Shown piece by piece: positions 1 through 11,176 of a DNA stretch of 15,802 bases. A program made the translations under genes and the position numbers. The notes below the pieces were generated by a model. The model did no database searches and had not been told where the DNA came from. It saw only the letters and a list, made by a program, of their open reading frames with translations. Each line of letters begins with the position of its first letter. Position 1 is the first letter of the stretch. This DNA comes from Elusimicrobiota bacterium (lineage in GTDB: Bacteria; Elusimicrobiota; Elusimicrobia; F11), in NCBI GenBank assembly GCA_046153645.1, contig JBJXGI010000100.1:1-15802 (forward strand). Direction: 5' to 3'.

Positions 1-137
1 ATCACCATTTCGCATCTCAGATGCTCAAAGCTAAAGAAAAACTCTTTTCTTCTCTCGGTACAACTTGATTTCTACGACGCACGGCTTGATTCTTATTTGA
101 GGCTCATTCTTGGATTGGAATATGCTCTTAATGATAA

Positions 138-3100
138 TTATGCACTAATGAGCCTTTGGCGAACTTCGTTCCAATTTGGAAGGGCTGATGTCCCCATTTT
201 TACAGCCAGAAGAGTTTGAGTCACAAAATACACATATGTTTGCCGTTTAAGTTCAAATAGGTCACTGGGCTGAAGATTAAAGAAAGAAGAGGGCAAAACT
301 GTCCCCTCTATCATCAGAAAATTAACTTTTCCACTATTATTTTCTCTTAAAACAACCGAAGCGCGAGCTTTATTTACAAAGTTTAGTGCGGTTACATCCT
401 TATTTTCTATTACAAAACCAAGTCGGTTATTTTTGATAAGAACTTGAATTTCAGGATCTAATTTTAGTTTATCGATGATCGCTTTATTTTTACTTGATAA
501 ACCCAAAACTAATCTTTCTTGGGTGTTTTCTCCCATAAGACGTTCGTTAATAAGGGTTTTGGCTGAATCTTCGGTAGAAATCCACGCAACGCTTCCCCCA
601 ACATTGGGATCATCCACTGATGTTGGAATATCTTTTAAGGGTATGGGAGATCGGGATGAATCCAGGACAGGTTTACGAGCATAGACATAAACCCATTTTG
701 TGTCAGCATTGGTTTTTTCGCTGTCTTGAATTCCAGAAGAAATAATCTCAAATCCATTACGAGTCATAAGGTCATTTAAAGACGCCTCCGTATAAAGTTG
801 ATTAATGCTTTCTCCTGTTGGGTCCCATTGCAAGCCTTCTCCTTCTCTGGTTAGAACATAATAAACTCCACCAGGCTTAAGAATGCGGTAGGTTTCACTG
901 GCAGCACGATCAGCTCCCATTCCCGGAGTTCCATCCAAAAAGAAAAGCAGGGAGGCCCGACTTCTGATGGCATCATAAGAATTGTTAGAAATAGCAGATA
1001 AATCTACATCGACTCCTAGTACTTCTAATAAATTAATTGGTCCATTTAACCCAATGCCCCTGCTATCCCGTGCGGTTCTAACCAAGTTCTCCATTGATTT
1101 CTCCACTTGTGTTGCCTTAACAACTGAGGGTGCGTTTATTCTGATTATTCTTTCGATTAATTTGAGATCAAACAACATCGATTTCAATCGTTCTGGGTCA
1201 GGATGATTAATTGATCGTTCTTTTAGTGCAGCGACGCGTCGGTTTAATCCTAAAATAAATCTATCTCCAGCATGACTAAGGTCAAACAACTCACGTCCTA
1301 TATCCACATTGGATTTTCTAGAAGAAATTTTTGGACCATTTACCACTAACTTTCTCGCAATTCTCCTCAACGTTTTATGAGGAAGATTTTCTATTTCCTG
1401 CTCTAATAATACAGATGCTCGGCCATGAAAATAATGCTCTAATACAGCTGTTCGGCCATGAAAATAAGCTTCTGCTAAAGTTCTCTCTCCCACCAACTCA
1501 ATCAAGTCAATTATAGCGTCAACTTGTTTATGGTAATCATTCACTTCCAAACCATCAATAACGGTATCAGACGTATTTAATCGTTTATTAAAGTCGCGAA
1601 TATCTCGAGGTGAATGAGGCATCCCTCGATTAAGTAAATAAAATTTCAAACTAAGATATTCAGTCATACCTTCGTCAGCATCAACATGAGAAAAACCAAC
1701 AGAGTTTGCATGAAAATGTTCATGTACCAGCGTTTTAGATAATTGTGTCGCGCGTAATTCCCCCGGTAGAATAACTGCATTGAAAAATGAATAATAAAAA
1801 CCATTACTGTTCATTTTTTTCTTTGAGAAAATTACTTGAGGTCGTTTCATTTCTACACCTAATCTATTTAGGATCAATCCGAGACTACTCTGCATTGCAT
1901 AGATTTCAGCAGCTTCTCCAGGGTCCGCTAAGCGTGCATCCGTAATTATTTTTCGGATTCTTAATATTTCAATAACCAATTCCATAATAATATCGCGTGG
2001 TAAAAGCTTTAAGCCTCGGGCTTTCCATTCTATTTTTTTAATTGAAACATCTCCTGGCAAATCGAATATTTCTCGAAGTTGATCAACAATGTGTCGAAGC
2101 TGCTTGGAATTAATAAGCTGATTTTGGGTCGCTTCTAAGAGTTGGAGAACCTGGGTTCTTTCAGGAGCATCAATCAAAGCGAAATGAAATCTCATTTCGC
2201 GGGAGTAAATAAATCGATACTGAACTCTATATCCAAACCGAACAAAAGTTTTAAGCAAACTATTAATAATTGGAGATGAAAAATTTTTAAGAATAAATGG
2301 AAAAAGAATCAAATAAAACCCAAATATAATACTCGATGTAAGAATGCCGCGAACCAGAGTGAAATTCCATAACTGCCGAATTCGAATTGTAAAGAGTGAA
2401 AACACTGCGAAAGCAGACCAAGCCATATTACTTGAAATGAGCGCAACAATTGTAGCTACTAGAAGAATTTGCACGCCATAAGCGACTTTTTCGCTTGTGA
2501 TTCTCTCAACGTGAACTGCTTCATGTAATGGAACAAAGAAAATAGAAAGAAGGAAGTGTGCAAATAATCGAGTTACTTTATTTTTAGTAAGGAGAAAATA
2601 CAAAACAGGATTTACTTCATACTGAAATGTTTTTGGATTGTACTTAATCAAGCCAACCCGTGAAGGAACCGCGTAACGACCGAATAGATTTATAGGCGGA
2701 CCCGTGATTGAATAATTCCCCCGCTCACTTATTTTCTTGAAAACATAGGGCATTAAAAATAACCCGGCAACGAAAATCGGCAGAACAATGGCGAAATTTC
2801 CCATTGCCGCTGAAACAAATGAATTCGATTGAATAAAGCCAGCGGAAATATAAATACCTGTAGATATAATCCCAATTTTAATAAAGGCAGATAAAAAGTT
2901 TTTTAAACCCAAGTGATTATCACTTATCGTCATAGGTCTTTTACTGGGTTTCCCATCAATCTTGTTATCCCATGCGTCTTTATTATATAGATCATGACCT
3001 CTAATACCCCCCAACCAAAAGCCTATTATTGGGACAATAGGAGTTGCAGCAAGGAGTTTGAAACCAATAATTGTGTATTCCATTTGATTGGAGATAAAAC

Positions 3101-6100
3101 CAACAATGAAATAACCTAATGAAAAGACTGCAAGCGCCATGCTTATGTACAAGGCGTTCTCAAAACCTTGACGAGCTTTTTCCCAGACGAGTATTTGGCC
3201 TGATTTTAGATTTTCCCATTCTTTATCATCTTTCGGATCATGATGAGCTATAAAATCATTTGAAAAATGTGCTAAAGATTCCCATTTACCCGCAAAATAT
3301 CTTGAAATAAATTCATTAGATGGGTTAAATAACACACGGCCAAAGAAATAAATAATTGGAGTAGCGACAAATAAGCCCTGAATAAAATAATTTGGATTAA
3401 TAAAGAAATAAATAATAACTGGTAAGAAAAAGATACCAACTCCGATTAAACGGAAGAATACATGACCAACTATATAGGTTGTCCACAGAGTTAAAGGTTT
3501 TTTATCTCCGGGTTTTCCTTCAAATTGAGGCTTATCGATATTTGAAATACCAAATGATTTAATCTCTGAATTAATTCCTTTTTCTTCTTTCTTTTGGAAA
3601 AGCGCTTTGACCTGAGGACTGGCGTCTTTAATAATAATTCCAATAGCATCTTCCACATACATAAAAATTTTAATAGCTGGTGCAAGTCTCGGATCGTTTC
3701 TTTTTTTCCAGATCGTAGAGAGTATCATTCCATCTAAAACAGGTAATGTTTCCAAAATTCCTAAAGGGGATTGAAGTGTTTGATTGGCTATTCCAGTTAA
3801 TTGCTGAAGATATTCATTTGTTAAGTTATTCGAATCGTGGTCCAAGATACTTTGAAAAACTTTTTTTTGATCAGGACTTATAAGTGAAAGCCCATATAAA
3901 ATCATGCCTCGAGCATTGTTTCGTGATGTTTGTTTTTGATTTTCTCTATCGGTTGCATCTTGAGGGACTGAGAGGCGATTGTCAATCTCATCAGGTATTG
4001 TTGGGTTTTTAAATTGGGCCACCCATTCTTCTAGCGATATGCCTTCTATTTCTGAAATCTTTCGGCCTACCAACCGGCGAACCTCTGTCTCCGGGTGTGA
4101 TAATGATAAAAAGATGGCTTGTTTTCTTTTTTCTGAAGGGGCTGATTCCAGCACAACTCTGATGGCGAGGACCGCTTGAGCAGCATTTTGATCACGACCT
4201 TGAAGAGCACTAATACTATCATCTAAGTTTTGATAGGGGTTGGGTTGAGTTTTAGGTTGAGTTTTTTCTACTGGTTCCTTAGTCGATTTAGGAATATCTG
4301 ATCTTTTTCTAAAATCATTTCTATCATGAAACCATTGAATAAGTATCAAAGGTATAATCAAAAACAAATAAGCAAGATCATTATTATAACCTGCCAATAA
4401 AATAGCTGTGGGGTAAATAGATATTAAAAGACTTAAGATTCCTATTTGCCGATAAGAACTCCATTCATGCTCGAAGAACAAAAATGACAAAGAGGTGATT
4501 ATTTGAAAAATGAGAATGCTATTAAACCAGATTGCCGAATTCCAAACATAAGGGATAAATAGTGCGCCCCATACCCCCAATCGAATCCCTTCTACAAAAA
4601 CCGTAAAAGTAGATTCAGGCCCTGGTGCTTTCCTCCCACTCCATTTCTTCCAAAGCCATTTTGTGAACCGAGATTGAGCCGCCTTAGAAAGGTTAGGTTT
4701 TTTTGGAGTTTCATCACTAATTTTCAATATGACAACTCCGTTATCATTTTTTCCCCAAACTACTTTAACTTTAGCCTGGCCAGGTTTATGAGCATTAGTA
4801 ACATCTACATCAGTTTCATTAGGTTCATTAGGTTCATTAGTATTATCAGAAATTGTTTGTGGATCTAATGATAATTCTCCTTCGAATTCAGGAAGAATAG
4901 AGCGAATCAATTCCGGATTACCGTCAATTGCGCATTTGGCAATAGCACCAGAAAGAACACCTTCAGTGGGATTTTTCGCAAGAAAAAGTTTCTCCCCCGA
5001 AAACAGATTTTCTAAAGGTGTTTTTTCTTGTGAAAAAGCGGTAAGGTAAGAGGAGCCGTTTTTAGTATCTATTTGAGTGACTTTCGGAATAAAATTAATA
5101 ACCGTAAAGCCAGCCTTTTCCATTTGCCCTGCTATCCCATGAGAGTGAAAGCCGCCAGTTACAAGAACAGAAGATTTCGAACGAGTTCTATTTATTTCTT
5201 TAATTAAATTATGAGACATCGCAAAATCGCGAGCTTCTGCTTCAAGATAGAATTTTTTGAAAGGGTCAAAATCAATCAAACTTCCCCACTGATAAGTCAT
5301 ATTTGTATGGGGTGTTAGTGACCTGTATTCTTTCCATTCTGTTTTTGTCAGAGAAAAATTAACCAACTTTCTCGATAAATAAAAATATTTTGATTCACGA
5401 ACGAGCTCTTGCTGTTTCCAAGTCTGAGCCAGTTTTTTATAAACATTCGATTCTGCCTGATTTACTTCGGTCAAAATACTTCCCACATCTAAAGAATCTG
5501 AAATAATTACATAAGAAAAATAATCATTTAAAGCTGAGTGGCTAAAAAGAGACACATTTTTTTTCTCACAAAAATTCTTTAAATGACTATAAAATTCTGC
5601 CTGGCGAATTCCCTGAGACCTAAAAGCAACACTTAAGTTAATAAATATCGTTTTTTCCTGCTCATTCATAACGCTTAATAGTTGACTTAAAAGCTGTGCA
5701 CGTTGACGCTCTATTTCTCGAAGGTTTAATTTTTTCTCCAAATCAAGTGCTTTTAAAAAGTGCTTTGTATTTTCAGATAACGCTGTTTCTTTTTCTAACA
5801 CACGAACGAATTCACCGAGAGAAATTGTTCCTTCGTGATAACCCATCGCTTGAATATCAAAGAGGTTTAACTTTGGCGGAAATTGAGTGGCTTTTTCATT
5901 TAGCAATTCGGTTTTCCATTGAGACAATTTCTTTTCAATAACTTCGCTTTCAACTTTGGAATTTTGGTAAGCAGACACGTTCGCGTTGTAGTGCACCATG
6001 TCATCAATACCAACAATTTTTGGCATCGGACGCGTACTTTTAAGTGCCGCATTGATAGGTCCGGAAATTTTGTTTTCATGGAGAAGGTAATCGGCAATTT

Positions 6101-6527
6101 TTTGAACCGTATCTTGCGGAGATGATTGACGGAATGGTTCCAAGTTGATCGGAGAAAATGCTCCCTCTAACGCGATGAGTTCAATGTTTTTATTTTCCAC
6201 CAAATCATGAATCGTATTGGCTATATTTTTCTGAGCTTCTTCATTTTGATGGATATCTTGGATGTGATAAATAATGCTTCGACTGTTTTTAGAGGAAACG
6301 GTTTCTTGCATACGGCCAAAGTGGGCAATAGGTGGGAGTTCAGGAACAATTGTCTTTTTTAGAAATGTGGAAATTGATTTTTGACGCTCTTTCCAAATAC
6401 TGCTTTCCTGGGCATGCCCCAAAACAACCTGCCCAAGAAAAAATATAGTAGTTAAAAAGAGATGAAAAGCCGTTTTCGCCCTAAAAAAAAGGCGAAATCT
6501 AAAAAGAAATAAATCTCGATTTCTCAT
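138..6527 (-). CDS. Giant (2129 aa) secreted/polytopic membrane multidomain protein: TraB/EreA/ChaN-like N-domain, CPBP-like TM modules, two HExxH metallopeptidase motifs, partial class I SAM methyltransferase
   Basis: Uninterrupted 6390-nt ORF. N-terminal basic + hydrophobic signal ending LGHA|QE. Motifs: QDIH (aa90-93), EGA (121), RDFAM (433), GGFH (458), HEAVH (1335), HEHFH (1602) + EGMTE (1619), LKPGG (1883). Many hydrophobic stretches in aa ~650-1420. CDS is confident; function is not. Confidence 0.9.
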   Translation of the reverse strand: MRNRDLFLFRFRLFFRAKTAFHLFLTTIFFLGQVVLGHAQESSIWKERQKSISTFLKKTIVPELPPIAHFGRMQETVSSKNSRSIIYHIQDIHQNEEAQKNIANTIHDLVENKNIELIALEGAFSPINLEPFRQSSPQDTVQKIADYLLHENKISGPINAALKSTRPMPKIVGIDDMVHYNANVSAYQNSKVESEVIEKKLSQWKTELLNEKATQFPPKLNLFDIQAMGYHEGTISLGEFVRVLEKETALSENTKHFLKALDLEKKLNLREIERQRAQLLSQLLSVMNEQEKTIFINLSVAFRSQGIRQAEFYSHLKNFCEKKNVSLFSHSALNDYFSYVIISDSLDVGSILTEVNQAESNVYKKLAQTWKQQELVRESKYFYLSRKLVNFSLTKTEWKEYRSLTPHTNMTYQWGSLIDFDPFKKFYLEAEARDFAMSHNLIKEINRTRSKSSVLVTGGFHSHGIAGQMEKAGFTVINFIPKVTQIDTKNGSSYLTAFSQEKTPLENLFSGEKLFLAKNPTEGVLSGAIAKCAIDGNPELIRSILPEFEGELSLDPQTISDNTNEPNEPNETDVDVTNAHKPGQAKVKVVWGKNDNGVVILKISDETPKKPNLSKAAQSRFTKWLWKKWSGRKAPGPESTFTVFVEGIRLGVWGALFIPYVWNSAIWFNSILIFQIITSLSFLFFEHEWSSYRQIGILSLLISIYPTAILLAGYNNDLAYLFLIIPLILIQWFHDRNDFRKRSDIPKSTKEPVEKTQPKTQPNPYQNLDDSISALQGRDQNAAQAVLAIRVVLESAPSEKRKQAIFLSLSHPETEVRRLVGRKISEIEGISLEEWVAQFKNPTIPDEIDNRLSVPQDATDRENQKQTSRNNARGMILYGLSLISPDQKKVFQSILDHDSNNLTNEYLQQLTGIANQTLQSPLGILETLPVLDGMILSTIWKKRNDPRLAPAIKIFMYVEDAIGIIIKDASPQVKALFQKKEEKGINSEIKSFGISNIDKPQFEGKPGDKKPLTLWTTYIVGHVFFRLIGVGIFFLPVIIYFFINPNYFIQGLFVATPIIYFFGRVLFNPSNEFISRYFAGKWESLAHFSNDFIAHHDPKDDKEWENLKSGQILVWEKARQGFENALYISMALAVFSLGYFIVGFISNQMEYTIIGFKLLAATPIVPIIGFWLGGIRGHDLYNKDAWDNKIDGKPSKRPMTISDNHLGLKNFLSAFIKIGIISTGIYISAGFIQSNSFVSAAMGNFAIVLPIFVAGLFLMPYVFKKISERGNYSITGPPINLFGRYAVPSRVGLIKYNPKTFQYEVNPVLYFLLTKNKVTRLFAHFLLSIFFVPLHEAVHVERITSEKVAYGVQILLVATIVALISSNMAWSAFAVFSLFTIRIRQLWNFTLVRGILTSSIIFGFYLILFPFILKNFSSPIINSLLKTFVRFGYRVQYRFIYSREMRFHFALIDAPERTQVLQLLEATQNQLINSKQLRHIVDQLREIFDLPGDVSIKKIEWKARGLKLLPRDIIMELVIEILRIRKIITDARLADPGEAAEIYAMQSSLGLILNRLGVEMKRPQVIFSKKKMNSNGFYYSFFNAVILPGELRATQLSKTLVHEHFHANSVGFSHVDADEGMTEYLSLKFYLLNRGMPHSPRDIRDFNKRLNTSDTVIDGLEVNDYHKQVDAIIDLIELVGERTLAEAYFHGRTAVLEHYFHGRASVLLEQEIENLPHKTLRRIARKLVVNGPKISSRKSNVDIGRELFDLSHAGDRFILGLNRRVAALKERSINHPDPERLKSMLFDLKLIERIIRINAPSVVKATQVEKSMENLVRTARDSRGIGLNGPINLLEVLGVDVDLSAISNNSYDAIRSRASLLFFLDGTPGMGADRAASETYRILKPGGVYYVLTREGEGLQWDPTGESINQLYTEASLNDLMTRNGFEIISSGIQDSEKTNADTKWVYVYARKPVLDSSRSPIPLKDIPTSVDDPNVGGSVAWISTEDSAKTLINERLMGENTQERLVLGLSSKNKAIIDKLKLDPEIQVLIKNNRLGFVIENKDVTALNFVNKARASVVLRENNSGKVNFLMIEGTVLPSSFFNLQPSDLFELKRQTYVYFVTQTLLAVKMGTSALPNWNEVRQRLISA
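1399..1467. repeat. Intragenic tandem duplication (~33-36 nt unit) encoding YFHGRTAVLEH/YFHGRASVLLE
   Basis: tcggccatgaaaataa at 1419-1434 and 1452-1467. 1407-1434 vs 1440-1467 differ at 2 of 28 nt. Confidence 0.9.
4243..4266. repeat. 12-bp tandem repeat x2 (KTQP-KTQP linker)
   Basis: ggttgagtttta ggttgagttttt. Confidence 0.7.
4815..4840. repeat. 9-bp tandem repeat x~3 (NEP-NEP-NE linker)
   Basis: ttcattagg ttcattagg ttcattag. Confidence 0.85.
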
Positions 6528-6534
6528 ATTAATA

Positions 6535-6578
6535 ATTGTAATGATTTAGCCTTAAGATTTCCTTAAGTTTAAGTTAAG
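6535..6578 (-). promoter_or_regulatory. Putative OmpR/PhoB-family (PmrA-box-like) activated promoter of the giant gene
   Basis: Minus strand reads CTTAAC-N5-CTTAAG-N5-CTTAAG (6578-6551), 10 nt, TACAAT (6540-6535), 7 nt, ATG (6527). Confidence 0.6.
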
Positions 6579-7903: not shown

Positions 7904-8215
7904 TCAATCTCTTTTAAGGGCTCCCTCGTTTAATAGCAACTGAAGCTTCTTCTTAATGCCTCCAGTGGCAGAGTATCCCCCCATTTTTCCGTCGGTACGT
8001 ATGACACGGTGGCAAGGGATAGTCGGAGCAAAAGGATTTTTAGCTAGGGCCGAACCAACAGCGCGAACGGCATGGGGATGATTAATTTTTTTTGCGAGTT
8101 CTGTATAGGTTAAAACTTGACCCTTAGGAATCTGGTAACAAGCCTCCCATACTTTCTGTTGAAAAGGAGTGTAACGGGCAAGATCATTTTTTATATTTGA
8201 AGGTAATTTCTTCAT
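7904..8215 (-). CDS. ogt: Methylated-DNA--protein-cysteine methyltransferase (MGMT/Ogt family), single C-terminal domain
   Basis: TPFQQKVW..IPKGQVLTYTELA, RAVGSAL..NP, active-site IPCHRVI, GGYS..GIKKK..LL.NEG. Likely start ATG 8215; the ORF track extends to 8260. Confidence 0.92.
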   Translation of the reverse strand: MKKLPSNIKNDLARYTPFQQKVWEACYQIPKGQVLTYTELAKKINHPHAVRAVGSALAKNPFAPTIPCHRVIRTDGKMGGYSATGGIKKKLQLLLNEGALKRD

Positions 8216-8230
8216 ATTAAAACAGTCAAT

Positions 8231-8239
8231 ATCATAGCA
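8231..8239 (-). promoter_or_regulatory. Possible extended -10 promoter (TGcTATGAT) for ogt
   Basis: TGCTATGAT 15 nt upstream of ATG 8215; no well-spaced -35. Confidence 0.3.
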
Positions 8240-8256
8240 CAAGAAATCAAAGCAAA

Positions 8257-9585
8257 TCACTCTAAATTTTCTTTAAAAAATAATTTCGATCTTCGCGCCC
8301 GGTGAAAAGTAATCGCAAACCGGTGTGCCTCATCGCGAACCTGCCTTAATAATAAAAGAGCGGGAGAATCTAACTTAAGCTGAATGGATTCTTTTGTATG
8401 AGGTCTAAAAATTTCTTCATTTTCTTTGGCTAAAGCAGCCACTTCTAAAGATTTGATGTCTAAACCTTCAATAGCCGCCAAGGCAAAAGAGAGTTGACCT
8501 TTCCCTCCATCAATAAGAACCAAATCAGGAAGAGCTTTATTTTCAGTTAACAATCTTTTATATCGACGACCAACCACTTCGGCCATTGATTTAAAATCAT
8601 CAATTCCTTTTACTGTTTTAATAATGAACTTTCGATATTGAGATTTATCTGGTTTCCCATTTAAAAAACTAACCATAGATGCCACTTTTTCAGCTCCTTG
8701 TATATGAGAGATATCAAAACATTCTATTCTCAGGGGAGGGCTTTTCAAAGTGAGCGCCTTCATCAATTCTTGAATTGCTCGACTGGCACCGACTTTTTCA
8801 CCTAACATTTCGGGAGTCATTTCACGAATTGTGACAAATTGATTCATGCGCTCAATGGTGTTGATACGGTCTCGTAACTCAGCTGCTTTTTCGTACTCCA
8901 TTTTAGAAGAAGCTTCCGACATTTCCGAAGACCACTCAGCGAGCAATTTTTCTTTTTTTCCCTGAAAGAACCATTTCGCCTGAGCAACGATTTTCTGATA
9001 ATTGCTCTTTGTTATCTTAGCCAGACAAGGGGCAGAACATTCTTGAGTATGCAAATAAAGACAAGTTTTCACTTTTTTATAGGGAAGGGGACTTCCTTCA
9101 TTAATTTCAAATTTACAGGGGCGAAGCGGAAACAGTTTTTTTCTCCAAGCCCACTTCAAAAGATGGCGAACGCTAGAAACATTTGGATAAGGTCCAAAAT
9201 AAAGAGAACCATCACGTTTCTTTTTCCTTGTTAAAAGAAGGCGAGGAAAATCTTCTTTTAGTGTGATCATAACATAGGGGTAAGACTTGTCGTCTTTCCA
9301 CATCGCATTATAAATGGGTTTATAATCTGAGATGAGTTTTCGTTCTAATACAAGTGCTTCTCTCTCACTGGCGGTGGGAACATAATCGATATGTCGAATT
9401 TGTGCCACTAAAGTTTCAATTTTAGAACCGTAGGAATCAACTGCTGTTCGTTGACGAAAATAAGAAGAAACCCTCTTTTTCAGATCAATGGCTTTTCCAA
9501 TATAAATAATCTGACTGGTGATATCCCGCATTAAATAAACTCCGGGACAATGAGGAAGTTTTGAGTAAAAATCTTTTGGGTTCAC
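8257..9585 (-). CDS. uvrC: Excinuclease ABC subunit C, compact form lacking the C-terminal HhH domain
   Basis: GIY-YIG (PGVYLM..IIYIGKAIDLKKRVSSYF, EALVLE, PIYN..DDKSYPY), YFGPY, 4-Cys region, UVR (EYEKAAELRD), RNase H-like (RIECFDISH, PDLVLIDGGKGQ, RDEAHRFAITFHR). Probable GTG start 9585, 10 nt after the murJ stop; the ORF track starts at 9636. Confidence 0.93.
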   Translation of the reverse strand: MNPKDFYSKLPHCPGVYLMRDITSQIIYIGKAIDLKKRVSSYFRQRTAVDSYGSKIETLVAQIRHIDYVPTASEREALVLERKLISDYKPIYNAMWKDDKSYPYVMITLKEDFPRLLLTRKKKRDGSLYFGPYPNVSSVRHLLKWAWRKKLFPLRPCKFEINEGSPLPYKKVKTCLYLHTQECSAPCLAKITKSNYQKIVAQAKWFFQGKKEKLLAEWSSEMSEASSKMEYEKAAELRDRINTIERMNQFVTIREMTPEMLGEKVGASRAIQELMKALTLKSPPLRIECFDISHIQGAEKVASMVSFLNGKPDKSQYRKFIIKTVKGIDDFKSMAEVVGRRYKRLLTENKALPDLVLIDGGKGQLSFALAAIEGLDIKSLEVAALAKENEEIFRPHTKESIQLKLDSPALLLLRQVRDEAHRFAITFHRARRSKLFFKENLE

Positions 9586-9595
9586 GAGATAAATT

Positions 9596-11176
9596 TTAAG
9601 TTTTTTTACGCAGAAAAAGATCCAAAAAGAAATCAAGTTCTTTTACTTTCAATAGTTTTGCAATCAAGAAATAAAAAAAAGATCCCGCAGCGATGGAGGT
9701 AAAAACTCTCAAAACCAAACTCCAATGAAGAAGAAGATGAAAACATAAACCATAACAAATGACTGCCATACAAAGCCCCGCAAAAATGCCAAAAAAGAAA
9801 CTCTTTGATATGGCTTTCCCATCAATCCTGCCCATTTTATTGCGCAGAATAAAAAAGAGCAAAATAACTTGAACCCAAGCGGCGACAGCAGTTGCCAAAG
9901 CAAGCCCTGAGACCTGTAATTTATGCATTAATAAAACATTGAGAACAACATTTATCAGCATCGAAATAAAAGCGATCTTTACGGGCGTTTTCGTATCTTT
10001 TCGGGAATAAAATGAAGTCGCCAATATTTTAGCCATTGAAAAAGCCGGAAGACCCAACACATAGGGGGCCAATGCCCGGTAAGTCATAACAGAATTTTCA
10101 AATGTAAATTTTCCCCGTTCGAACAACAATTGAGTAATAGGAAAACCAATAACAATCAAACCAATGACCGAAGGAATCAAGATAAAATTGGCGATACGAA
10201 TAGAAAAAGATAACAAACGCTTAAACTCAGTCCAATTTTCTTGGGTAGCGGCTTTTGAAAGTGCTGGAAGAGAAACACTCGATACCGCAACCCCGAAAAT
10301 AGCCAAAGGCAATTGCATAATTCGATTTGAATTATAAAGCGCTGAAATGGAACCATCACCCAAAAAACTGGCACAAAATTGATCAACAAAGGAATTAATT
10401 TGATCTGCGCCAAGACCAATGATGGTAGGCACCATTAAAAGAAAAACAGATTTTACTTCCGAATGTTTAAATGGTTGGACCAGTTTAAGATGGTACCCCT
10501 GTTTATATAAGCCTGGAATAAGCCATAAAAAATGGATTCCCCCACCGACCACCGCCGCTACAGCTAAACCATGAATAGGATTTTCAAATTGAGATGCCAT
10601 TAAAGAAATAAAGGCAATCTCAGCAATGGATAAACCTGAAGGAGCCATGGCCGGAATAAAAAATTGTCCCGAAGAATTGAGAACGGCCGAAATAATGGCG
10701 GCCAATGAGATAAACAGTAAAAAGGGCCAAATAAGGCGTGTTAAATTTACCGCCAAATCAAACTTAGCGGGGTCGCGAGTAAATCCAAAGGCCACAAATT
10801 TTGTTATCGGTTCAGCGAAAATAATACCGATGATAACAATCAACGACAATAAAATGGCCTGCCCCATCAGTAATGAATTAAAAAAAGAATTCGCTTCTTC
10901 TTTCCCTTTTTTATGGAGAATTCCAGAAAAAACCGGAACAAAGGCAGCCGTTAATGCCCCTTCTCCGAGAAAACGCCTTAAAAGGTTGGGGATTTTAAAC
11001 GCCGCGTAAAATGCGTCTGTTTGGATACCTCCACCAAAATAAGCAGCCACCATTGAATCTCGGAAGTAACCAAGAACGCGAGAAATCATGGTCGCCGATG
11101 AAAACGCGCTCACACGCCGTCCAAACTGCTTTTCTTCACGTCGAGTTGAATTTATGTTTGTATCTTCATTTTCCAT
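9596..11176 (-). CDS. murJ: Lipid II flippase MurJ (MviN)
   Basis: SRVLGYFRD, DAFYAAFKIPNLLRRFLGEGAL..AFVP, YNSNRIMQLPLAIFG, FERGKF, FYSRKDTKTP, GLALAT; 526 aa polytopic. Confidence 0.97.
   Translation of the reverse strand: MENEDTNINSTRREEKQFGRRVSAFSSATMISRVLGYFRDSMVAAYFGGGIQTDAFYAAFKIPNLLRRFLGEGALTAAFVPVFSGILHKKGKEEANSFFNSLLMGQAILLSLIVIIGIIFAEPITKFVAFGFTRDPAKFDLAVNLTRLIWPFLLFISLAAIISAVLNSSGQFFIPAMAPSGLSIAEIAFISLMASQFENPIHGLAVAAVVGGGIHFLWLIPGLYKQGYHLKLVQPFKHSEVKSVFLLMVPTIIGLGADQINSFVDQFCASFLGDGSISALYNSNRIMQLPLAIFGVAVSSVSLPALSKAATQENWTEFKRLLSFSIRIANFILIPSVIGLIVIGFPITQLLFERGKFTFENSVMTYRALAPYVLGLPAFSMAKILATSFYSRKDTKTPVKIAFISMLINVVLNVLLMHKLQVSGLALATAVAAWVQVILLFFILRNKMGRIDGKAISKSFFFGIFAGLCMAVICYGLCFHLLLHWSLVLRVFTSIAAGSFFYFLIAKLLKVKELDFFLDLFLRKKT

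Follow-up and report, generated by a model that had tools for sequence, protein, structure and literature searches.

A candidate membrane-tethered polyprotein family with a TIKI-superfamily-like head in Elusimicrobiota

Giant genes of uncultured bacteria are a known curiosity that until now had no common handle. Elusimicrobia are named as one of the phyla with many huge proteins (PMC11573180), and in Omnitrophota the giants reported by West-Roberts et al. in 2023 carry N-terminal C39 or S8 peptidases together with many membrane helices (10.1101/2023.11.21.568195), a signal peptide plus membrane helices being a common layout of the long proteins of this phylum (10.64898/2026.06.07.730766), and self-cleavage by the N-terminal peptidase domains has been suggested for them (10.1101/2023.11.21.568195; 10.64898/2026.06.07.730766). 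Here we analyze an open reading frame (ORF), P0001, located at positions 138..6527 on the minus strand of a contig of 15,802 nucleotides (nt) from an Elusimicrobiota bacterium (JBJXGI010000100.1, assembly GCA_046153645.1; this whole stretch is called the window), which starts with ATG and encodes 2129 amino acids (aa) plus a stop. P0001 is one of 48 paralogs that share an N-terminal head, and we read it, with a confidence that stays somewhat below even, as a pro-protein that would be tethered to the membrane and release its soluble parts through proteolysis. As far as the Omnitrophota giants are portrayed in the main texts of the two reports on them, the P0001 family resembles them in very long ORFs that start with a signal peptide and encode numerous membrane helices along with series of enzyme domains of cytoplasmic type, whereas C39 and S8 peptidases are named there and a Tiki-type head is found here, and P0001 is much shorter, with only 2129 aa. 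Tiki, TraB and ChaN were not found in these main texts, where Elusimicrobia figure only as downloaded genomes, and the family defined by this head and its common tail was not found described in the open-access literature searched, where giant proteins with a signal peptide and transmembrane segments are described.

In regulated intramembrane proteolysis, a site-1 cut outside the membrane is followed by the action of an M50 site-2 protease (RseA/DegS/RseP). The P0001 family is similar to this arrangement in its putative outside hydrolase or sensor, in an intramembrane protease-type module (M50 or CPBP in paralogs) and in a cytoplasmic-type cargo that includes sigma factors, with the differences that all the parts are in one chain and that P0001 itself has no M50 or CPBP match. 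MARTX and polymorphic toxins are characterized by RTX repeats, a C-terminal type I signal and a cysteine protease domain, or by a toxin tip with an adjacent immunity gene. P0001 is like them a modular giant with several enzyme domains and internal protease(s), and the effector RRSP has the fold of the head, but P0001 has a Sec-type start instead of a C-terminal type I signal and its cargo is not toxin-like; Pfam gave it only the weak DUF6782 and Methyltransf_11 matches at E ≤ 0.1 and PADLOC none at E ≤ 0.01, and no immunity gene is visible in the 137 nt of downstream DNA, beyond which an immunity or partner gene may lie.

The head itself is closest to the TIKI superfamily (Tiki1/2, TraB/PrgY/GumN, ChaN 2g5g, erythromycin esterases and Bcr135/136 (6xcq, 3b55, 2rad), HopBA1 5t09 and RRSP 5w6l), with which it has in common a parallel-sheet alpha/beta core whose first strand carries an acid-x-His, then a Glu at a distance of 28 residues and, late in the sequence, a Gly-Gly-x-His. 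The TraB/PrgY and Tiki domains face the outside and are held by membrane segments, which is like the placement that we propose for the head. By contrast, the head has a helical insert of ~270 residues and an Asp in place of the first Glu, and it always leads a chain, of ~1,300 up to over 10,000 residues.

The head and the family that it leads

With the first 560 residues of P0001 as a query against the same genome (tblastn and phmmer), the head was found at the N-terminus of 48 of the 2494 ORFs of at least 100 aa, and the match was N-terminal wherever the 5' end of the ORF had been assembled. These ORFs sum 319,107 nt, 12.15% of the genome, and the head is present in 40 of the 66 ORFs of at least 1200 aa, the longest head-bearing ORF reaching 10,179 aa. 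An earlier prediction made from the window alone (the original prediction) had proposed that a conserved N-terminal domain of about 500 aa carries variable cargo, and this proposal stands, in such a way that the domain recurs as the head of the 48 ORFs, the bodies behind it are mostly unrelated, and paralogs were found while a colinear full-length ortholog was not. The 40 paralog heads that could be aligned are only 24-44% identical to the head of P0001, and for this reason the head-bearing ORFs are taken as old paralogs rather than as swapped cassettes.

The presence of the head in other organisms was also studied. A pattern scan of 185,579 species genomes gave 325 candidate stretches, 293 of which were confirmed as heads, and all the 79 loci retained came from metagenome-assembled genomes of Elusimicrobia/Elusimicrobiota, including Ca. 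Obscuribacterium magneticum. The original prediction had linked this type of N-terminus to Elusimicrobiota and Omnitrophota, and these loci bear it out for Elusimicrobiota. They contain 89 head-bearing ORFs, 37 of them complete and 305-3741 aa long, and the head begins at residue 40 or before in 36 of these 37. In a sample of Elusimicrobiota the head was detected in 62 of 201 genomes and 32 of 77 genera, with open frames of up to 11,814 aa, and in none of the 58 genomes sampled from one small-genome family of the phylum. The public names of head relatives are "hypothetical protein", and one partial relative is labelled Omnitrophica; this protein (P0009, 1023 aa, labelled Candidatus Omnitrophica) couples the head to a UDP-glucose pyrophosphorylase domain behind it, as does paralog C29_21333.

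The head of P0001 (aa 41-520; 4968..6407, minus) was modeled with AlphaFold2 (AF2) as an alpha/beta core of the Tiki/ChaN/erythromycin-esterase type, with strands at residues 71-77, 85-91, 117-120, 170-173, 452-458 and 475-481 around the helical insert (aa 177-448). The predicted local distance difference test score (pLDDT) of the model was 82.8 and its predicted template modeling score 0.76, with pLDDT below 60 beyond approximately aa 485. When the model was compared with 48,161 chains by VIA-align, ChaN (2g5g) was the first match, with a Z of 8.6 (189 residues aligned, root-mean-square deviation 6.4), further matches being 2rad (7.9), 2qgm (7.9), HopBA1 (7.9), EreC (7.7) and RRSP (5.8), in such a way that five of the top six rows are members of the TIKI superfamily, at Z values near the background stated for the tool. 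The weak top rows given by Foldseek point in the same direction (Bcr135-type proteins, EreC, ChaN and HopBA1). At the sequence level the best match of the head in the Protein Data Bank (PDB) had an E of 0.081, and no Pfam or NCBIfam model reached its cut-off. The ChaN family, PF04187, was weakly matched by 18 of the 40 paralog heads (best E 6.1e-6), below its gathering cut-off of 27.7 bits (24.6 bits at most in whole-ORF scans), and the head is classified from these profiles as a superfamily-level relative and not as a member of PF04187.

Active members of the superfamily share a centre of two His and two Glu that is essential for catalysis, formed in RRSP by E3900, H3902, E3930 and H4030 and represented in Bcr135 by H85/E113, as described in PMC6254334. 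In the 40 heads aligned, residues D91, H93, Q99, E121, G122, G173, Y339, F426, Y427, R433, G458, G459, H461 and P481 are invariant in all. The distance from H93 to E121 is 28 residues, as between H3902 and E3930 of RRSP and between H85 and E113 of Bcr135, H461 lies within a GGFH motif, and D91 of D91-x-H93 takes the position of the first acid, these equivalences being judged by order, strand position and spacing and not by superposition. The fold matches to the superfamily, together with the invariant D91-x-H93, E121 and H461 at an RRSP-like spacing, support that the head is probably an active hydrolase of the TIKI superfamily, with Asp in the position of the first Glu.

P0001 carries the five hallmarks of the family, i.e., an upstream TTAAG repeat, a signal-like start with the motif E..W.ER(R/K), the head, an adjoining membrane cluster and an Ala-ended C-terminal helix. 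The start (aa 1-40; 6408..6527, minus) resembles the signal peptide that had been predicted, with an R/K-rich charged stretch followed by 19 hydrophobic residues that end in ...VLGHA/QE. Just behind it lies the motif E..IW.ER, in which at least 90% of the 40 heads keep W45 and R48. The hydrophobic core of this start is also conserved across the starts of the family (...YF.TQ..FAH..E..W.ERR), which is unusual for signal peptides, and it may be that this segment is not simply cut off and discarded.

Upstream of the gene there is a family-typical direct repeat, CTTAAGG-N4-CTTAAGG (6550..6567, minus), and a -10-like TACAAT (6535..6540, minus) is located 7 nt 5' of the ATG. Of 44 family starts, 21 have loose TTAAG repeats in the preceding 80 nt, versus 53 of the 1156 other ORFs of at least 250 aa, and a TAYAWT box lies 5-10 nt before the start in 12 of 44 versus 16 of 1156, both patterns having been defined post hoc from the family sequences. 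A leaderless or near-leaderless messenger RNA is predicted for P0001 from this arrangement.

Two groups of ORFs in the genome depart from the common layout. The ORF at C80:20564-24436 (+), of 1291 aa, bears the head and has neither membrane segments nor the Ala end, and it overlaps the start of a headless ORF of 1350 aa (C80:24414-28463, +) that ends in ...LIDSQA; they look like a single gene of the family that a frameshift or an assembly error has divided. Two small ORFs on contig C23 (17662-18195 and 18258-18779, +), of 178 and 174 aa, correspond to the front and the back of a head, and the pair is read as a broken member of the family.

Body, cargo and tail of the chains

Among 5.8 billion clustered proteins, no near-length relative of aa 600-2129 was found except P0001 itself, and across the class 60 further genomes, of which eight belong to the taxonomic family of this bacterium, contained single modules only and no colinear ortholog. 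As no colinear ortholog was found, the body of P0001 is regarded, from sequence comparison, as a mosaic. The order of parts given by the original prediction was nevertheless borne out on the minus strand, including the low-complexity linker, three membrane clusters, recognized here as hydrophobic clusters (at about aa 641-741, 1017-1266 and 1317-1415), the helical stretch between them, a zinc peptidase, a methyltransferase fragment and a distinct C-terminal domain, as well as the two HExxH motifs (HEAVH at 1335 and HEHFH at 1602). What is new for P0001 is its anatomy, the failed test for CPBP, the M1-like gluzincin, the repeated HExxH-x6-E module and the tail domain of a sub-family.

The linker (aa 521-640; 4608..4967, minus) is a low-confidence, partly low-complexity segment (NEPNEPNETD...) with no relative in the genome. 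Membrane cluster 1 follows (aa 641-741; 4305..4607, minus), a module that is also present twice inside paralog C80_31546, and then a soluble helical region (aa 768-985; 3573..4226, minus) with 34-37% identity to two copies in paralog C67_2577. Pieces of membrane cluster 2 (aa 1017-1266; 2730..3479, minus) are shared with paralog C29_46151, and a piece is found at a shifted position in the giant P0012.

Behind cluster 2 lies a repeat module (aa 1274-1415; 2283..2708, minus) which in the AF2 model is formed by a small beta-sheet (tGPPI..YDP..NP.L.YFL) and four predicted helices. The motif HEAVH (1335-1339), together with E1346, is placed at the end of the first predicted membrane helix of this module. 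Ten copies exist in the genome, eight in C86_11315 (10,179 aa), one in C29_77734 and one in P0001, aa 1274-1389 being the stretch that recurs in the two paralogs, and the HExxH-x6-E signature is kept in all ten; no free-standing relative of the module in the range of 85-273 aa was found. The ORF with eight copies (C86:11315-41851, minus) carries AAA_5 and VWA domains along the front half of the protein, and its last 5,300 residues consist of eight tandem units of ~540-730 aa, each with one HExxH-x6-E membrane module.

CPBP/Rce1-like proteases carry the motifs EExxxR, FxxxH and HxxxN/D. Two CPBP-like modules had been claimed for P0001, where only one HxxxD-like stretch, HDRND, was found among such motifs. 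When all of the genome was scanned with PF02517 at E ≤ 1, contig C91, which is the window, gave no match, and a comparison of aa 641-741 with the genome's own CPBP modules by hhalign gave probabilities of 0.1-0.2%. M50 was rejected as well, with no PF02163 match on C91 at E ≤ 1 in a search where the RseP-like gene of the genome and paralog C34 did match. In this way, of the five protease-like centres originally proposed for the chain, three found support, namely the gluzincin, the head and the membrane module with HExxH, and the two CPBP-like ones found none in P0001, although the original idea is right for relatives, as real CPBP and M50 modules occur in paralogs.

The PF02517 scan matched three paralogs and one free-standing gene, and directly behind the head the CPBP modules of C29_46151 (C29:50357-50659, minus) and C19_20992 (C19:22810-23127, plus) reached 27.9 and 22.8 bits, both above the Pfam cut-off, while the M50 module behind the head of C34 (C34:7381-7977, minus) reached 25.7 bits with PF02163, or 30.3 with its neighbours in frame. 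The first membrane cluster behind the head is thus a recognized intramembrane protease module in three paralogs.

The cargo of the family was analyzed by a domain scan at E ≤ 1e-4 of 38 paralogs, handled as 40 items with the largest split in three, and recognized body domains were detected in 15 of them. These comprise domains of signaling type (sigma-70 regions 2/3/4 in several copies, HATPase_c and cNMP-binding), AAA_5 with or without VWA, SNF2/DEAD and SF1 helicases, MTS/PrmA-type methyltransferases, Metallophos, UDPGP, beta-propellers and M50. Judged from these domain assignments, the cargo is of cytoplasmic and housekeeping type.

The C-terminal third of P0001 (aa 1420-2129) gave 115 matches at E ≤ 0.001 with HMMER, which fall into three independent modules, and no usable match in the ESM Atlas. 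The first module is a gluzincin of the M1/thermolysin-like kind (aa 1481-1710; 1398..2087, minus), with HEHFH at 1602-1606 followed by DEGMTEY, whose E1619/E1623 provide the downstream Glu; HExxH plus (N/D)EG.T(E/Q)Y is kept in all nine sequences aligned (P0001 and eight relatives). An AF2 model of aa 1270-1710 (pLDDT 79.2) was aligned by VIA-align to LTA4H with a Z of 11.1-11.3 over 164-210 residues, a wide search gave 15 chains at Z of at least 8, and in a second one all the 50 rows listed were enzymes of the M1 family. By contrast, Foldseek with this model returned no PDB match at E ≤ 0.001, the sequence search of the PDB with the corresponding alignment reached E 0.17 at best, and none of the M1 models of Pfam matched, the closest profile being DUF6782 (E 0.004). 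From motif and model, the zincin of P0001 is assigned as a gluzincin at clan level only.

The second module (aa 1787-1953; 669..1169, minus) appears as a remnant of a class I S-adenosylmethionine (SAM)-dependent methyltransferase, in which the glycine-rich motif I was not found. It is 33% identical (pairwise E 5e-25) to the 263-aa methyltransferase P0025, from just behind the LLDVATGNG of the latter, and the stretch of P0001 that precedes the alignment (...PERLKSMLF) has no glycine. The HMMER search gave ~80 similar matches to this module. Its alignment to ordinary methyltransferases of ~260 aa begins only past their motif I, and the Methyltransf_11 match covers only profile positions 43-94.

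The third module is the C-terminal domain (aa 1964-2129, 166 aa; 141..638, minus), which ends in ...NWNEVRQRLISA (...RLISA at the very end) and includes the Ala-ended tail found across the family. This domain is also at the extreme C-terminus of P0012, P0023, P0036, P0039 and P0043, five giants of 1932-2889 aa that all bear the head, and of short proteins; a PDB sequence search with the tail gave a best E of 0.39. P0012 is 32% identical to P0001 in the head and 38% in the tail. In a FastTree tree of the heads with midpoint root, the head of P0001 falls together with that of paralog C67, away from the heads of the five giants with the shared tail domain, which hints at shuffling. An Ala end was found in 30 of the 32 family ORFs of at least 1000 aa with a stop, versus 76 of 1135 other ORFs of 250-999 aa, and this difference points to a common handling of the whole chain.

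Cut or intact chains

In the pro-protein reading, Sec would thread P0001 into the cytoplasmic membrane of the producer itself, with the head outside, as the signal-like N-terminus suggests, and the many hydrophobic segments behind this Sec-type start would stop the transfer and retain the chain in the membrane. The portion with the gluzincin, the methyltransferase-like module and the tail would be cytoplasmic, as judged by the ATP-, SAM- and DNA-dependent domains that occupy the equivalent places in paralogs. The head would act as a hydrolase or a sensor on the outside, and the membrane modules could be cutting or re-entry units (HExxH-x6-E here, CPBP or M50 in some paralogs). The release of the soluble parts by cleavage, in the style of regulated intramembrane proteolysis, is the most speculative step. 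In favor of this reading counts the cargo of the paralogs, as sigma-70 factors, helicases and methyltransferases need the cytoplasm and in part also need to be released, and so do the size of the family, the conserved centre of the head, the protease-type membrane modules behind the head in paralogs, the two kept HExxH centres of P0001 and the shared Ala ends.

A number of points weigh against the pro-protein reading and against the activity that it assigns to the head. No cleavage, fragments or cleavage-site motif were observed in the sequence analysis, and the head would lie opposite the cytoplasmic cargo across the membrane. In 23 of the 38 paralogs scanned no body domain was recognized, so that built-in proteases are not the general rule, and an HExxH adjoining a membrane segment is present in only 6 of the 48 head-bearing ORFs, so that cutting at membrane modules, as in the original prediction, would not be general; in P0001 this membrane module (model residues 1-150) is barely covered by the rows of the fold search. 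The membrane topology comes from a crude hydropathy scan with inconsistent helix counts, and in one sigma-bearing paralog the counts are inconsistent with all the sigma regions being cytoplasmic. For the head, the first acid of the centre is the invariant Asp91 and not a Glu, the residue equivalence to the superfamily is judged by order and spacing, the best VIA-align Z (8.6) is close to background, Foldseek gave no PDB match at E ≤ 0.001, and P0001 itself does not match PF04187 at E ≤ 1.

In the main alternative, P0001 would be an uncut, membrane-tethered array of enzymes, i.e., a very large one-component transmembrane device with the head as an ecto-hydrolase or a ligand sensor. We consider it possible, with a probability clearly in the minority. 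Both extreme ends of the chain are conserved, the head in 48 ORFs and the Ala tail in 30 of 32, which fits selection on an intact chain. Most paralogs have no recognizable protease beyond the head, and some carry domains of signaling type (HATPase_c, cNMP_binding, sigma factors), while TraB/PrgY and Tiki, as membrane-anchored ectoenzymes, give further ground for an array of this kind. However, sigma-70 modules, helicases and a PrmA-like methyltransferase between membrane clusters would be hard to use while tethered, P0001 has two conserved HExxH centres, and families of intramembrane proteases (CPBP/M50) are found behind the head in three paralogs.

The pro-protein reading can be extended to the whole family. 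Elusimicrobiota would then possess a polyprotein system, with dozens of membrane-inserted, Tiki-headed and Ala-tailed chains that are dismantled once the head has sensed or cut a signal, in such a way that sigma factors, helicases, peptidases and other enzymes are set free, P0001 delivering the gluzincin peptidase. In this full form the proposal is rather doubtful. If the chains are cut, bacteria would have an equivalent of the polyproteins of viruses, coupled to regulated intramembrane proteolysis, and, if the polyprotein reading is true, a new way to store and deploy a tenth of a proteome.

The original prediction had favored an effector or predation system similar to MARTX or polymorphic toxins, in which the protein is secreted or injected, its hydrophobic regions enter a target membrane and the cargo is freed in the prey or host. 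A constant N-terminal module with variable C-terminal parts, the presence of hydrophobic, translocation-like regions and the head fold shared with RRSP (MARTX) and HopBA1 (type III) are consistent with such a role, and giant proteins have been linked to predation in the Omnitrophota report (10.1101/2023.11.21.568195). The support for it proved poor, because around twelve hydrophobic segments behind a Sec-type start would predict arrest in the membrane of the producer, no Pfam family above its curated cut-off and no PADLOC match were found in P0001, the cargo of the paralogs is of housekeeping type, heads that are 24-44% identical indicate old paralogs, and the neighbours are housekeeping genes (upstream, as the contig stops 137 nt past the stop of P0001). 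We consider this explanation quite improbable. Least probable of all is a decaying or neutral mosaic, in which P0001 would have been patched together recently from modules, a dead methyltransferase among them, and would be kept only for its head or already be on its way out. In favor of it are the lack of a colinear ortholog (near-length among 5.8 billion clustered proteins, or in 60 genomes of the class), the missing motif I of the methyltransferase and the broken members of the family (the C80_20564/C80_24414 split and the fragments on C23). Against it, a frame of 6.4 kb has stayed open in A+T-rich DNA, and nothing is lost of the invariant residues of the head, of the two HExxH motifs, of the tail or of the upstream element.

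The giants of Elusimicrobiota can be treated as one family with testable hallmarks, namely an apparently intact hydrolase centre in the head, a shared tail and a shared upstream element. The head, with ~520 residues, could be expressed and assayed alone, and the function of giant genes would become a problem of enzymology and topology.

Genomic surroundings of P0001

The window is the entire contig C91 of a genome of 2.63 Mb in 105 contigs that is 99.7% complete as measured by marker genes. The G+C content is 35-41% in the P0001 stretch and 35-42.5% across the window, and an open frame of 2129 codons at such G+C is far beyond chance. Scans of the whole ORF with Pfam at E ≤ 0.1 gave two weak matches only, DUF6782 (E 0.004) and Methyltransf_11 (E 0.03), none of them above its curated cut-off, and no family match was obtained with NCBIfam nor with PADLOC at E ≤ 0.01.

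Short contigs assembled from four DNA runs of one study match the P0001 stretch without differences or joints, at a depth of 3-5, with several bins not covered and no contig spanning the gene, and no RNA run with this stretch was found among the sequencing runs listed. On the same strand, upstream of P0001, Pfam and NCBIfam scans identified an FNR-type reductase, Ogt, UvrC, MurJ, HolA, LptE and LeuRS, with S20 on the opposite strand, so that its neighbours are housekeeping genes.

From the stop of P0001 to the end of the contig there are 137 nt. In this end (window 1-126), contigs of two runs continue into unlike sequence at positions 3 and 126, and in most runs the first bin (1-230) has 2-3 times the summed contig depth of the remaining stretch. 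The contig end is probably a repeat, which masks the DNA downstream of P0001.

Upstream of P0001, the UvrC ORF (window 7904-9636, minus) encodes only 459 aa versus the ~570-690 positions of the NCBIfam models, to which it matches no further than the RNase H-like endonuclease domain. The end of this ORF, with its stop, overlaps the beginning of the 118-aa Ogt, which consists of the DNA-binding/active-site domain only.

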